From an uncultured Candidatus Saccharibacteria bacterium (GTDB lineage Bacteria > Patescibacteriota > Minisyncoccia > Phycocordibacterales > CAZNKJ01): 64,000 nt of DNA. The notes under the pieces were generated by a model. That model saw only the letters and a list, made by a program, of their open reading frames with translations, was not told the origin of the DNA and made no database searches. This document shows, one piece after another, positions 15,530 through 59,105 of this stretch. Location: the NCBI GenBank assembly GCA_964574145.1, contig CAZNKJ010000002.1, positions 2,075 through 66,074 on the forward strand, given 5' to 3'. Position 1 is the stretch's first letter, and every line of letters starts with the position of its first letter. A program made the translations under genes and the position numbers.

Positions 15530-15814
15530 ATGTCTTCAGTAGACAAAAACAAAGCTTTAAGTGTTAAAACTCAAGACATGAATAGAGCTATCGACTCGTT
15601 AAATGAAGAGATGAAAGCTGTAGACTGGTATCAACAAAGGGCTGATGTTACAACAGACGAGAACCTTAAAGGTGTCTTATTGCACAACATGAATGAAGAG
15701 TTGGAACATGCAGCGATGTTGATAGAGTGGATACGTCAACAAAGTCCTCAATTTAGTAAGGAACTAAAGAAATATCTTTTTAGTGATTCTGAGGATATTT
15801 CTAAAATGGAGTAG
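15530..15814 (+). CDS. EncFtn-like (encapsulated-ferritin-like) small four-helix protein
   Basis: 94 aa; EEMKAVDWYQQRADVTTDENLKGVLLHNMNEELEHAAMLIEWIRQQ resembles the Glu/His metal-site region of encapsulin cargo ferritin-like proteins, from memory only. Confidence 0.5.
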   Translation: MSSVDKNKALSVKTQDMNRAIDSLNEEMKAVDWYQQRADVTTDENLKGVLLHNMNEELEHAAMLIEWIRQQSPQFSKELKKYLFSDSEDISKME

Positions 15815-15825
15815 ACAAAAAACGC

Positions 15826-15872
15826 AAAATAAAAACTTCTCGTGTCGAGTATCGAGAGGTTTTTATTTTGCG
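15826..15872 (+). terminator. imperfect hairpin downstream of the EncFtn-like gene (cttctcg...cgagagg + T-run)
   Basis: Stem-loop followed by tttttatttt. Confidence 0.4.
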
Positions 15873-16162
15873 TCTATTGATTTTAATTTCCGAGTAGCTT
15901 CTTCGAGTTTGTTTTGATGTTCGTGTATTTTGCGTTTCAGTTCATCTTTTTCTCTTACCAGCCTACGCTTACTGTCTTCTTTTTTTGGAACAATGCTTCG
16001 TGACAGATTTTTTATTTCGCGTTCAAGTTCATCGATCTGTCTTTTATCTGTAGATATTTCTTGCTCGGTCTGAGATATTTGAGACTCCTTTGCCCGTAAG
16101 TCATTTTCCAACTGTTGAATTTCTCTATTGAGAGAGTTTAAGAGGTTGTTTATATCAGACAT
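15863..16162 (-). CDS. coiled-coil protein, unknown function
   Basis: 99 aa, heptad-rich and E/K/R/Q-rich. Confidence 0.4.
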   Translation of the reverse strand: MSDINNLLNSLNREIQQLENDLRAKESQISQTEQEISTDKRQIDELEREIKNLSRSIVPKKEDSKRRLVREKDELKRKIHEHQNKLEEATRKLKSIDAK

Positions 16163-36663: not shown

Positions 36664-37194
36664 TCAGCGTTTAGCTAAAAAGAGAATACTTAAAAGAGGT
36701 ACTGAAAGCCACCAGAAGAAAAAATCAGAAGAAGAAAACAAAAGTTTTATAGGTGGGGCAAAAGAATAAAAACTAGCTATAGGTAATACATTATAAGCAA
36801 AAGCAATAAGTAAAGAAGTTGCAGCTAGAGATAATAACGATGCTTCAATAAAACGCCTTATTCCTCTATCTGGATAATCAGTAAATATTACACGTTCAAT
36901 GATTATATATACTCCAATAACAAATGCGAAAAAAATTATAGCATTTGATAATAATATTTTAATATCTGACCCTGTGAATAGAGAAAATTTGTCAGTATAT
37001 GGGAAGTGTATATAGATAAGAAGACTAATATATAGAGAAAAAATAAGGGCTATCATCCGATCTTTTCCATATCTAATCGCAAAGACAAAAAGAGCTGTTG
37101 CTGTTAGGATGGCGACCAAACTAGCTATAGAAAGCTCAGAAAAGAAAAACGAAAATTCTTTTATGTATGAAGAAACAGTACTCACTATATTCAT
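36664..37194 (-). CDS. polytopic membrane protein of unknown function
   Basis: 176 aa, about 5 hydrophobic helices; just upstream of the histidine kinase. Confidence 0.4.
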   Translation of the reverse strand: MNIVSTVSSYIKEFSFFFSELSIASLVAILTATALFVFAIRYGKDRMIALIFSLYISLLIYIHFPYTDKFSLFTGSDIKILLSNAIIFFAFVIGVYIIIERVIFTDYPDRGIRRFIEASLLSLAATSLLIAFAYNVLPIASFYSFAPPIKLLFSSSDFFFWWLSVPLLSILFLAKR

Positions 37195-44968: not shown

Positions 44969-46261
44969 CTATTTTTTTAGCTGTATTTCAACTAAAATCT
45001 TCTCTGGGTCGTTTCCAAATGATTGTCTCCAGAATGGATTTATGGAGGCATGAGCTTTGTAGATAGCTGGATAGCCTTTTAATATAGTATTGACTGCTGA
45101 TTTAGGACGATTCCTCAAGTCTTCTTTCAGTCTACTTTCATCAAAAGTCCATACTATGCTGGCCGTACCCTTAAGTGAAAAGGTAAAAGAATCTTCTTCC
45201 CATGGTTGAGAGATTTCTCCTGTGGGTTTTTTTAGAGTTAAATCTTTTGTAGATAAGATATACACTGGGAGACCTTCATAATCTGATATAGTTTCTTGAG
45301 CAATATATTGTGCAAAATCTTTTCTTTTAAAAATAACAGCGTACACTATTCCACTACTTTCTATGCGCGCCTTGTTGTCACCGTCATCAAAAATTTGCGG
45401 CTCCGAAAAATTAAAGAAAGTTCCACCTTCAAAAAAATAAAAATCTGATGGAATGTCTGTATAGACCTGATTAAGCATTTCCTCACGTAACTTTTTTTCT
45501 AAAGATTGTTTTGTTTTAGAAAACAAACCATCTTCAACCTTGAGTCTCTCACCAGCAAAACCTCCAGTCATAGGAGTCTTTGATCGAGCGTAAAATTTAC
45601 TATATTGAGGAGAACCTTTAAAACCAGGAATAGTAAAATCTTTAAGAGGAATATTATATTTTTCTCCTGGCTCATCTCCGTAAACGGTCACTTCCACACT
45701 ACCTGGGGTTATGCTACCATCTGAATTTTTTTTCTGTCCTGGAATAGATACCGACTCATTAATTCTGTAAATTAGCCCTTCCGGAGTTTCAAAACGAGTA
45801 TTAGTCACTAGTCGCTGTTTTTTAGAACTGAAATTATTGAAGATTAAAATTTTTCCAGAAGATTTTTTCTCAATTTGCTCTTTGTCAGTAGCAGAAACAA
45901 CTTTAGATACGGTTTTCTCAATTTGCATTATTTCATAAGAAAGTTCTCCTATCTCAGGCTCTCGTAAGGCCGTAAATTGACCATCCACAGTAACTTCCTT
46001 TTGTTTTGGGTTCACTATGATTTTAGAGTAAGAAAAAATAAGAGAAAGAATTATTACAGCAACAACTAGCAACACTACTGAGATGATCCACGTACCATAT
46101 TTTGAAAAGAAATTAGTTTTACTGCGATCGGGTGGAATTGGAGGAGTGTTATTGTACTCATAAGACTGCCCTACTTTGGACTTTGGGACATTAGAGCGAC
46201 TTATATTGCGAATACTTCTGCGTTTAGGGGGTACTATATCGTTGAATGAATTCTGTGACAT
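44969..46261 (-). CDS. single-pass membrane protein, unknown function (about 55-aa cytoplasmic N-terminus, TM, about 350-aa extracytoplasmic domain)
   Basis: TM WIISVVLLVVAVIILSLIFSY; no family recognised. Confidence 0.5.
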   Translation of the reverse strand: MSQNSFNDIVPPKRRSIRNISRSNVPKSKVGQSYEYNNTPPIPPDRSKTNFFSKYGTWIISVVLLVVAVIILSLIFSYSKIIVNPKQKEVTVDGQFTALREPEIGELSYEIMQIEKTVSKVVSATDKEQIEKKSSGKILIFNNFSSKKQRLVTNTRFETPEGLIYRINESVSIPGQKKNSDGSITPGSVEVTVYGDEPGEKYNIPLKDFTIPGFKGSPQYSKFYARSKTPMTGGFAGERLKVEDGLFSKTKQSLEKKLREEMLNQVYTDIPSDFYFFEGGTFFNFSEPQIFDDGDNKARIESSGIVYAVIFKRKDFAQYIAQETISDYEGLPVYILSTKDLTLKKPTGEISQPWEEDSFTFSLKGTASIVWTFDESRLKEDLRNRPKSAVNTILKGYPAIYKAHASINPFWRQSFGNDPEKILVEIQLKK

Positions 46262-46332: not shown

Positions 46333-47538
46333 TTACGAGGATTTATTAATAAGTGATAGATGAATTATTTGAAGTAAAAGAGAAGAATCGGGAGCTATTT
46401 TTTGATCAAAAGAGAAAAAATTTCCCATCATCCCAGCAGTTAGTACCGTAATGGTATGATAATCCTGTTTATCTTCATTGTCATTATTAAGATATGACTC
46501 TAATAATGATTTAAACCAATAAGAGGTGTCAGACGGTGCCGTAATATAGATATGTTTAGGAAGAGGTGCTGTGGAAATAAATTTTCCGAGGGTTTGGTTT
46601 AACTCAACACTCCATTCCTTACTTACTTTTTGGATCAATTTGTATTCTTCAGAAGTTTTGTTGAGGTGGGATTCTTTTTCTGTCATCATACGTATTAAAG
46701 AAAGAGCTTCCGCTGGAGTACTGTTGCGTTTTTCGGATATTATTCGAGCCAGGGTTAATACTCCTATAGGAAAGGGTATCGTCTCTTGTATGACATCTTT
46801 TAACACAAGAGTTAAGTTACTAACTTCCCCACTTATATTTATAAGTAAAAACTTGTCAGATTTTGAGTAACAATCCCTAACTACTGTATAAGTAGAGAGA
46901 GAACGTGAATAAAATGTTACGTTTATATTTCTAAAATGGTTGTCTAGAACGTCACAGATATTTTTTTTAACCAAGGCAGACATAAAAGCCATATGAAGAG
47001 ATAAACTAATGTGTTTTGCTTTTTTCCCATAGGGATTGGCAGTTCTGTAACCATTTAAATCAACACTAAGTAGTTTTTTATCAATTAGAGAAGGTTCTTT
47101 GATATGTTTGTTTTGCCACAACTTACCTTTTTCTTTCTTCGCATGATCTTCTGTACGTTCTAGCATCTTTTCAATAAAATGCGGAGAAATCACAAAAGAT
47201 TCTTTTCTTTGAAATGAAAGAAGATGTGTTTTTGAGACATACCAGATAGAAGAAAGTCCACAAGAAACGGTCTTTATATGAAAATTAACAGAAGAATTTG
47301 CTATAAATCTATTTACTTCTTCACTTATCTCTATCAAACCTCTAAGCATTTCTTTTATGAAACGATCATATCTTAGGTGGGATTGAAAGATGAGCTGAAC
47401 TCTGGTAGAAAAATATATATGTATTTTCCCATCTTTCTTAAAGCCAGAAATTGAACATCCTATTGATGAGCTCCCTATATCAAAAACAATATCAACTTTT
47501 TTACCAGATCTTTTGTGCCACGACGATATCCATCTCAT
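46333..47538 (-). CDS. divergent actin-fold ATPase (FtsA/PilM-like)
   Basis: N-terminal VDIVFDIGSSSIGCSI (phosphate-1-like), later INISGEVSNLTLV (phosphate-2-like); 401 aa. Confidence 0.4.
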   Translation of the reverse strand: MRWISSWHKRSGKKVDIVFDIGSSSIGCSISGFKKDGKIHIYFSTRVQLIFQSHLRYDRFIKEMLRGLIEISEEVNRFIANSSVNFHIKTVSCGLSSIWYVSKTHLLSFQRKESFVISPHFIEKMLERTEDHAKKEKGKLWQNKHIKEPSLIDKKLLSVDLNGYRTANPYGKKAKHISLSLHMAFMSALVKKNICDVLDNHFRNINVTFYSRSLSTYTVVRDCYSKSDKFLLINISGEVSNLTLVLKDVIQETIPFPIGVLTLARIISEKRNSTPAEALSLIRMMTEKESHLNKTSEEYKLIQKVSKEWSVELNQTLGKFISTAPLPKHIYITAPSDTSYWFKSLLESYLNNDNEDKQDYHTITVLTAGMMGNFFSFDQKIAPDSSLLLQIIHLSLINKSS

Positions 47539-57821: not shown

Positions 57822-59105
57822 TCAGAGTGGTATGTCCGGGGGAGCTATTTTCTGCCGAGAAGTAATTCTAGGAATTGTCGGCGTTTGTACAACTTGTCCA
57901 GGTAAATGAAATACTGTGGCTAGCTCCTCGGAACTCAAGACAAAATAGTCACGCTCATACGGAGGTGAGAGATAGGAGCGTAAACGGTATCCTTCATAAA
58001 GTTCATGTTTTGCAGCTTTAGCACGCCAACCAAACGGATCCTCCCAAGGATATTTAAACATTGTGGGAAATTTTGGTTTAAAGTTATTAAGTGAATGAGA
58101 CTGAAATGTTCGCATGATAGTAGGAAACCCATTACGTTTTCTGCCATCAAAATGTTCCTTATCAGCCATATAGATCATGCGAATGCCAGTATCAAAAGGT
58201 TTTTTACTAGTATTTCGTTCAAGAGCCTCAATTGTTTTTTGTTCACTTTCCGTAAACATACGGAAAGAAGATCCTTCGCCTCCCTGAGCTTTACTTATAA
58301 TATTCTCAACTTCCCTTTTTGCTTCATCCTGCCAATCTTCAGTTTGAAACCAAGTACCATGTTTATGTTTTTCCGCCTGATGAGCTCTAATAATAATTTG
58401 AAAAAAACCATATTCTCCTTTTCCAAAAGATCCAAAAAATTCAATGATAGCCGCCATAGGATCTACTTTGTATTCTTCGTCTGTCTCTTTATCCAACCCC
58501 CAATCCACATAGGTTTTTATTGGATATGGATCAGGTTTTGCCAAAACCTGATACAACCCAAACAACTCTTGTTTATCAGGATTGTAAGGAAGACGAGTAA
58601 TATAATCAGGTACTTCCTGAATTTCAATTGTTGGATATTGACTATAAAACTGTGATTCTACAACAGGTTTTATTTTTGAAGGAATGCGAATATAAAAATG
58701 AATCTCTCCCTCTAAAGAAACTATTTCTAGTGAAGATTGCTCGCGTAATTTTCCTTCTACATACTTTTCATAACTATGTTTAGGAGTACCTGTGTGGAAA
58801 AAAGCATTCAAAGCTGTTTCCATCGCAAGAGGAGACTGAGTTATCTCCTCTGGTAATTTTATCTCCAGAAGAATATTTTCAATTTGCATGAAAGCCTTCG
58901 TCCGCACATAGTGCATCCATAAATGTCCGAAAATAAAAATAAAAATAACAGTGAGCCATAATGGTGCGTAAGGTGTTAAAGTCTTATATACATCAGATGC
59001 AACCATAATGGGAAAGAAAAAATAAGCCCCAATGGCTATGGTAATCAAAAGTAATCCAACTGAAACTTCAGAACCAGTTAATGTTTTTAGTATTTTATCA
59101 AACAT
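57822..59105 (-). CDS. membrane protein of unknown function (two N-terminal TM, about 340-aa soluble domain)
   Basis: No family recognised. Confidence 0.45.
   Translation of the reverse strand: MFDKILKTLTGSEVSVGLLLITIAIGAYFFFPIMVASDVYKTLTPYAPLWLTVIFIFIFGHLWMHYVRTKAFMQIENILLEIKLPEEITQSPLAMETALNAFFHTGTPKHSYEKYVEGKLREQSSLEIVSLEGEIHFYIRIPSKIKPVVESQFYSQYPTIEIQEVPDYITRLPYNPDKQELFGLYQVLAKPDPYPIKTYVDWGLDKETDEEYKVDPMAAIIEFFGSFGKGEYGFFQIIIRAHQAEKHKHGTWFQTEDWQDEAKREVENIISKAQGGEGSSFRMFTESEQKTIEALERNTSKKPFDTGIRMIYMADKEHFDGRKRNGFPTIMRTFQSHSLNNFKPKFPTMFKYPWEDPFGWRAKAAKHELYEGYRLRSYLSPPYERDYFVLSSEELATVFHLPGQVVQTPTIPRITSRQKIAPPDIPL

Follow-up and report, generated by a model that had tools for sequence, protein, structure and literature searches.

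The 94-codon gene that starts with ATG and, with its stop codon, occupies positions 15530-15814 on the plus strand of the window (the whole 64-kb stretch of DNA analysed here) codes for a short EncFtn-like protein of the s-FLP, or Non-EncFtn, type, and there is no encapsulin shell gene in its vicinity. The protein, devoid of a targeting peptide, most probably acts as a free, ring-shaped di-iron ferroxidase that would remove Fe(II) and oxidant without storing iron. Since the catalytic residues of the window protein are those of the model enzyme, R. rubrum EncFtn, and are accompanied neither by a shell nor by a targeting peptide, a free ferroxidase without storage function is the reading that appears best supported.

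The gene had been described in an earlier note, made from the sequence alone, as an orphan EncFtn-like gene, on the strength of two motifs, EEMKAVDWYQQRAD and NEELEHAAMLIEWIR, in a 94-aa product. Both motifs are found, letter for letter, in the translation of ORF 15530-15814. The HMM search that the note had proposed as a check places the product in the EncFtn-like family, and not in an unrelated one: Pfam family PF22277 (EncFtn-like) is matched over profile positions 4-85 of 85, with 121.2 bits and E-value of 1.6e-35, far above chance level and above the curated gathering cutoff of 27 bits, which disposes of the note's own reservation that the assignment might be wrong. In a sequence search against solved structures, the best match is 3k6c (E = 5.8e-25), followed by 5n5f and 5da5. 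Weak matches to Pfam Rubrerythrin were also returned, and ferritin heavy chain gives marginal matches only (E-values of 0.5-1). The AlphaFold2 model of the monomer, built from a 29-sequence alignment, has mean pLDDT of 92.2 and consists of helices 12-40, 44-71 and 73-83, i.e., the two long antiparallel helices and a short third one that are expected of the EncFtn-like architecture. When this model is compared to the PDB with Foldseek, all top matches are EncFtn structures (5n5f, 5da5/5l89 and 3k6c), with TM scores of 0.85-0.88 and rmsd of 1.0-1.5 Å. On the evidence of profile matches, structure matches and conserved ferroxidase-centre residues (see below), the earlier assignment is sound; within the ferritin superfamily, the predicted fold assigns the window protein to the EncFtn-like branch.

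The metal-binding residues are concentrated in two segments, codons 26-34 (EEMKAVDWY, 15605-15631, plus strand) and codons 52-60 (HNMNEELEH, 15683-15709, plus strand), both located by alignment to R. rubrum EncFtn (PDB structure 5da5). This alignment is ungapped, with an offset of +5, so that R. rubrum E32, Y39, E62 and H65, the ligands of the ferroxidase centre, correspond to E27, Y34, E57 and H60, and all four are kept in the window protein. Likewise, E26 and W33 are the counterparts of entry-site residues E31 and W38, and H52, E56 and E59 are the counterparts of H57, E61 and E64 in the outer metal site (roles of the R. rubrum residues are after PMC5012862). Eight of these positions (E26, E27, Y34, H52, E56, E57, E59 and H60) are invariant in the alignment of 29 short and long homologues. 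The one departure in the entry site is at codon 29 (15614-15616), where the window protein has Lys and R. rubrum EncFtn has Glu34. Besides the window protein, only its closest relative, P0002, has this lysine; among 42 further homologues, Glu is found in 41 and Gln in one. In the R. rubrum enzyme, the E34A replacement abolishes metal binding at the entry site and modestly increases activity (10.1101/785121), and the kinetics of the window protein may therefore differ from those of the model enzyme. Position 58, occupied by either Leu or Lys, was considered as a marker that would tell encapsulated forms from short ones, and was rejected because the encapsulated R. rubrum EncFtn carries Lys there.

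The window protein terminates 11 residues past the conserved YLF motif, with the tail SDSEDISKME (15779-15811, plus strand, delimited by alignment with long forms), and thus has neither a linker nor a C-terminal targeting peptide. Long homologues run 25-40 residues further and end in such a peptide, for example ...SLGIGSLRA, ...DDLGIGALDTGE, ...RFTVGDLKGE or ...FTIGSMKGE, which together conform to the pattern ...LGIG(S/A/G)L... or FT(V/I)G(S/D)(L/M). In the alignment with these long homologues, no targeting peptide of the LGIGxL, TVGSL or FTIGSL type, placed after a flexible linker, is seen in the window protein. NCBIfam model TIGR04535 (encapsulin-associated ferritin-like protein) aligns to it through profile positions 5-86 of 114 only; with the C-terminal end of the profile left unmatched, the score is 105.6 bits and stays below the cutoff of 125 bits. 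Short forms at the examined loci have tails of 7-16 aa. The window tail, LFSDSEDISKME, has the variant pattern S/T-D/E-x-x-D-I-x-x-x-E, which is common to short forms of CPR and DPANN, and proteobacterial short forms have TDKPIAHK in its place. The window protein does not match the C-terminal consensus of s-FLPs, LFTD(E/N)KPIAHE (Table 2 of PMC11202242); that consensus rests on sequences closely related to NE0167 by BLAST, and the mismatch therefore marks a subtype and does not speak against membership among s-FLPs. A separate set of EncFtn-like forms, 117-118 aa long (L013:6214-8354, P0042 and P0047), ends in ESL(I/L)RTLNxSS(D/E)Q, with no known targeting peptide; the L013 gene is placed just after the genes for an Fe-superoxide dismutase and two Fe-S assembly proteins.

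Short proteins of this type have been described before. In a 2024 review (PMC11202242), s-FLPs are defined as the shorter forms that have neither a long disordered C-terminus nor an apparent targeting peptide, typified by 3k6c, an unpublished apo structure; they were at first classed as non-encapsulated, and it was noted that the short tail might hold an unrecognised shell-binding sequence. This class is equivalent to the "Non-EncFtn" group that He et al. described in 2016 (PMC5012862). The window protein, with its 94 aa and 11-aa tail, has the length expected of an s-FLP (about 92-100 aa) and lacks a long disordered C-terminus; as in other members of the class, there is no associated encapsulin gene (0/88 short-form loci, including the window; see below). 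It lacks three features of a Family 1 encapsulin cargo in the strict sense, namely a targeting peptide, a PF04454 shell gene in the same operon, and a score at or above the TIGR04535 cutoff. Judged by its sequence, it is an ordinary member of the s-FLP/Non-EncFtn class.

The closest known counterpart is NE0167 of Nitrosomonas europaea (3k6c), which is 95 aa long, is 52-56% identical to the window protein in the structural alignment, has the same ferroxidase-centre residues, and is likewise without a long disordered C-terminus or a targeting peptide. Unlike NE0167, the window protein has K29 at the position of the entry-site Glu, belongs to a Paceibacteria-like CPR host, and is encoded behind rplI; its tail, in contrast to the TD(E/N)KPIAHE consensus, is of the CPR/DPANN type. 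FLP-TP proteins, such as Rru_A0973 of R. rubrum (5da5) and Hoch_3836 of H. ochraceum (5n5f), have the same fold as the window protein at 42-49% identity, with identical di-iron ligands and outer-site residues; they differ in having a disordered linker of 25-45 aa plus a C-terminal targeting peptide, and in being encoded just ahead of a Family 1 shell gene. The window protein shares its superfamily and its di-iron ferroxidase chemistry with classical ferritin, bacterioferritin and Dps, and the EncFtn dimer mimics a four-helix bundle (PMC5012862). These classical proteins, though, are closed 24-mer or 12-mer cages that store iron, whereas the chain of the window protein has the two-helix design and its known relatives are open rings without a cavity.

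Short forms from DPANN archaea (Woesearchaeota L006, L014, L016 and L019; Ca. Forterrea L058) and from other CPR bacteria are 61-68% identical to the window protein and are closer to it than are the proteobacterial short forms (55-62%). For the archaeal forms, this likeness is a hint of exchange between bacteria and archaea of ultra-small size, or of constraints common to both. In the NJ tree, the Paceibacteria-like clade is found near the targeting-peptide forms; this placement is not robust, as quartet bootstraps join the clade with the DPANN/CPR short forms (69% vs 30%).

Housekeeping genes fill the window, whose G+C content is 32-40%. The EncFtn-like gene is preceded by rplI, for ribosomal protein L9 (15052-15501, plus strand; Pfam Ribosomal_L9_N and L9_C), which ends 28 nt upstream of it, and is followed by a convergent gene for a 99-aa protein (15863-16162, minus strand) that matches coiled-coil families only, always below cutoff; Pfam matches and gene order agree with the earlier note, which had named rplI and a small coiled-coil protein as the neighbours. 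Four related loci have the order cysS-corA-S41 peptidase-rplI-EncFtn-like-(convergent gene of 97-101 aa)-rpmA, as far as their contigs reach, with one additional gene ahead of rpmA in L095. The EncFtn-like proteins encoded there are 89% (L094, from GCA_054033095.1), 80% (L095), 71% (L001, from GCA_036517055.1, named Candidatus Paceibacterota) and 67% (L005) identical to the window protein. In all five genomes, the gap between rplI and the EncFtn-like gene is 1-28 nt, and a simple terminator scan finds no terminator-like site in it; order and gap suggest that rplI is the probable co-transcription partner. Directly after the EncFtn-like stop codon, RNA folding reveals a hairpin with a 21-bp stem (15822-15873), which the simple terminator scan had missed. 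Its folding energy is -28.3 kcal/mol, with z-score of -8.55, and none of the 200 shuffled sequences folds as well. The hairpin is located between the two convergent genes, its 3' arm overlapping the last codons of the coiled-coil gene, and is probably a bidirectional transcription terminator.

In each of the five syntenic genomes, the EncFtn-like gene faces a convergent gene for this coiled-coil protein, which is 97-101 aa long and without a family (L001:10345-10638; L005:6235-6531; L094:6336-6635; L095:1121-1426). No coiled-coil neighbour is found among the conserved neighbours of short-form loci in other phyla, and a functional link therefore seems unlikely. Among the five orthologous EncFtn-like genes, synonymous change is saturated and replacements are few; between the window and L094, pS is 0.70, pN is 0.06, and dN/dS is about 0.03. 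The gene is thus real and is maintained under strong purifying selection.

We performed several kinds of searches for a shell gene. Within the window, the 48 plausible ORFs of at least 150 aa include no Pfam match to Linocin_M18 or to phage capsid families, and the annotated ones are all housekeeping genes. Four ORFs of 176-430 aa, all on the minus strand (44972-46261, 46336-47538, 57825-59105 and 36667-37194), have no significant Pfam match, and no capsid match to any of them was found in PHROGs or at relaxed Pfam thresholds. One of the four combines a transmembrane helix at its N-terminus with a weak baseplate-like match, one has an actin/FtsA-like N-terminal motif DIGSSSIG, and another has N-terminal transmembrane helices; with these membrane-protein or actin-like features and no capsid similarity, they were rejected as cryptic shells. 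Locus L011 served as a positive control: it encodes P0049, a 124-aa EncFtn with a targeting peptide, and a 269-aa Linocin_M18 (PF04454) protein whose gene is 4 nt downstream. With the L011 shell protein as the query, tblastn gave no match in the window or in the short-form loci covered by that search. Together with jackhmmer, these searches agree with the statement in the earlier note that no encapsulin shell gene is nearby.

For a broader comparison, one genome per GTDB species was scanned; at least 587 species have a relative of the window protein, and the best 80 loci were taken with up to 10 kb on each side. Short forms account for 74 of these best 80 loci. Overall, 95 loci were compared, and six-frame ORFs of 93 of them and of the window were searched by jackhmmer with the L011 shell as the seed. 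Shells were detected in exactly seven loci (L011, L012, L020, L030, L040, L056 and L060), and in each of the seven, a long-tailed EncFtn gene comes directly before the Family 1 shell gene. For the short forms (85 loci and the window, 86 places in all), jackhmmer found no shell gene; flanks of 9 kb or more on both sides were available at 50 of these places. The precomputed Pfam annotation of L094 and L095 also shows none, nor is there a shell gene in the fetched flanks of any of the syntenic relatives L001, L005, L094 and L095. This brings the short-form total, including the window, to 88, with no shell gene in the fetched flanks of any. The number of independent places is somewhat smaller than these locus counts, because some contigs were recovered from more than one sample and are counted more than once (L002-L004 repeat L001; L008 and L074 repeat L007; L010 repeats L009; L012 repeats L011). 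The long-tailed L013 was left out of the judgement on shells, as its contig ends 290 nt downstream of the gene.

A rule based on length and tail separates the shell-linked and shell-less groups cleanly. The canonical motif by itself is not an absolute predictor of a shell because of L060 (L060:5680-6809, from a Terriglobia MAG), where the 111-aa EncFtn-like product ends in a tail of 24 aa that lacks the canonical motif, and a Family 1 shell gene overlaps the 3' end of its gene; this may represent either a non-canonical targeting sequence or an assembly error. The expectation in the earlier note, that EncFtn-like genes normally sit next to a family-1 shell gene, thus holds for the long forms with targeting peptides and fails for the short ones, which are commonly shell-less. 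As shell-less short forms are common and already described, the orphan status of the window gene is what is expected of the subtype, and is not an anomaly. Among the matches listed in our literature search, no paper joins encapsulin with Patescibacteria, CPR or DPANN, and neither ferritin nor rubrerythrin is mentioned in two papers on oxygen adaptation of CPR.

Elsewhere, short-form genes are found in two recurrent contexts. In nine proteobacterial loci (L023, L038, L041, L049, L050, L051, L078, L079 and L093; for example, L049:1105-3924), the short-form gene is on the same strand as, and is flanked by, the genes for a CCG/4Fe-4S oxidoreductase (RFO), at a distance of 9-38 nt, and for DUF3501, which abuts or overlaps the short-form gene; in eight of the nine, rubrerythrin is encoded upstream of the short-form gene. 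The aerobic-type RBR-RFO-DUF3501 cluster has been linked to peroxide defence, and the published figure of it includes an unnamed hypothetical gene (Cardenas et al. 2016, PMC5114695). The short form is possibly an unrecognised fourth gene of this aerobic-type rubrerythrin operon. In four unrelated loci (L017, L025, L045 and L067), a gene for a ZIP-family metal transporter is located 63-215 nt downstream of the short-form gene (for example, L045:10336-11070). Both contexts would fit a shell-independent role in defence against metals and oxidants. None of these partner genes, i.e., rubrerythrin, RFO, DUF3501 or ZIP, is present in the 64-kb window.

The rubrerythrin neighbourhoods also suggest a different reading, in which the di-iron site would be re-reduced by a redox partner and the protein would serve as a peroxidase or oxidase akin to rubrerythrin, or as an accessory subunit, and not as a ferroxidase that consumes iron. 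The location of the short form between RFO and DUF3501, mostly downstream of rubrerythrin and with gaps of 0-38 nt, speaks for such a reading, and so does the tie of the cluster to peroxide defence (PMC5114695); the weak Rubrerythrin matches of the window protein point the same way. Yet the ligand set of the window protein is that of the EncFtn ferroxidases, the window has no gene for rubrerythrin, RFO or DUF3501, and the Paceibacteria-like lineage has no conserved adjoining partner gene, so that we regard this reading as unlikely. A less probable idea still, to which we would give small credence, is that the protein is a genuine encapsulin cargo, with the shell encoded elsewhere in the genome and the short tail LFSDSxDIxxxE serving as a non-canonical docking sequence. 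The possibility has been raised for s-FLPs (PMC11202242), the tail is conserved within the lineage, L060 has a shell gene beside an EncFtn-like gene without the canonical targeting peptide, and absence of a shell from the host is established for the 64-kb window. However, cargo and shell genes are adjacent in every such system among the loci compared, with 7/7 long-tailed forms having the shell gene directly downstream and 0/88 short-form loci having one in the flanks. Moreover, in the alignment with long forms, the tail falls at the end of their ordered domain and not on their targeting peptide, and tails differ between clades of short forms (TDKPIAHK vs SDSxDIxxxE), which would not be expected of a shared docking motif.

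It is hardly credible that the gene is left over, in a state of decay, from a former EncFtn-encapsulin operon, which would have lost its shell and targeting peptide in the course of genome reduction and would have no function left. Genome reduction is typical of CPR bacteria, and the position of the clade near targeting-peptide forms in the NJ tree might be taken as a trace of such an origin, but that placement is weak, with quartet bootstraps of 69% vs 30% favouring the other short forms. A functionless remnant is contradicted by the strong purifying selection: dN/dS is about 0.03, all metal ligands are invariant, and the gene has kept the same position in at least five genomes that have diverged to 67-89% amino acid identity. 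Of the three options listed in the earlier note (a shell gene elsewhere, a protein that works without a shell, or a wrong assignment), the second is the best supported, given the missing targeting peptide and the lack of shell genes in the fetched flanks of all 88 short-form loci.

The free ferroxidase may be pictured as follows. Each 94-aa chain would form a two-helix hairpin with a short third helix, and in a pair of chains, E27, E57, H60 and Y34 from both would make up a symmetric di-iron ferroxidase centre. The dimers would probably close into a ring-like decamer, of the metal-dependent D5 kind expected of the family, as suggested by the 52-56% identity to 3k6c, an entry with 10 chains. 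Free in the cytoplasm, this decamer would oxidise Fe(II) with O2 or H2O2, and thereby diminish Fenton chemistry. R. rubrum EncFtn, when isolated, has ferroxidase activity; it takes up only about 10-48 Fe per decamer and, without a shell, produces insoluble Fe(III) (PMC5012862). With neither a cavity nor a shell, bulk iron storage would be impossible for the window protein. The host appears to be a small-genome Paceibacteria-like (CPR) bacterium, in which the gene would probably be transcribed together with rplI, with termination, also probable, at the hairpin 15822-15873. Decamer formation, ferroxidase activity, independence from a shell in vivo and co-transcription with rplI are all inferred.

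As a single gene, the window locus carries minor weight, as a neat instance of a subtype already named and crystallised. The comparison of 95 loci sharpens the question, posed in the 2024 review (PMC11202242), of whether the short forms are encapsulated at all. In these loci, shell genes accompany the long-tailed forms only, and short forms are common, strongly conserved and sometimes part of a rubrerythrin operon, all of which argues that they work without a shell. For genome annotation, this means that short EncFtn-like genes should not be labelled as encapsulin cargo. A more general proposal, which we put forward tentatively, is that short EncFtn-like proteins are widespread shell-independent, ring-shaped di-iron enzymes with a physiology of their own: in CPR and DPANN, they may serve as a constitutive, rplI-linked detoxifier of Fe(II) and oxidant, possibly as the sole ferritin-type protein of the cell, and in many Proteobacteria, they may be the fourth component of the rubrerythrin-RFO-DUF3501 system.
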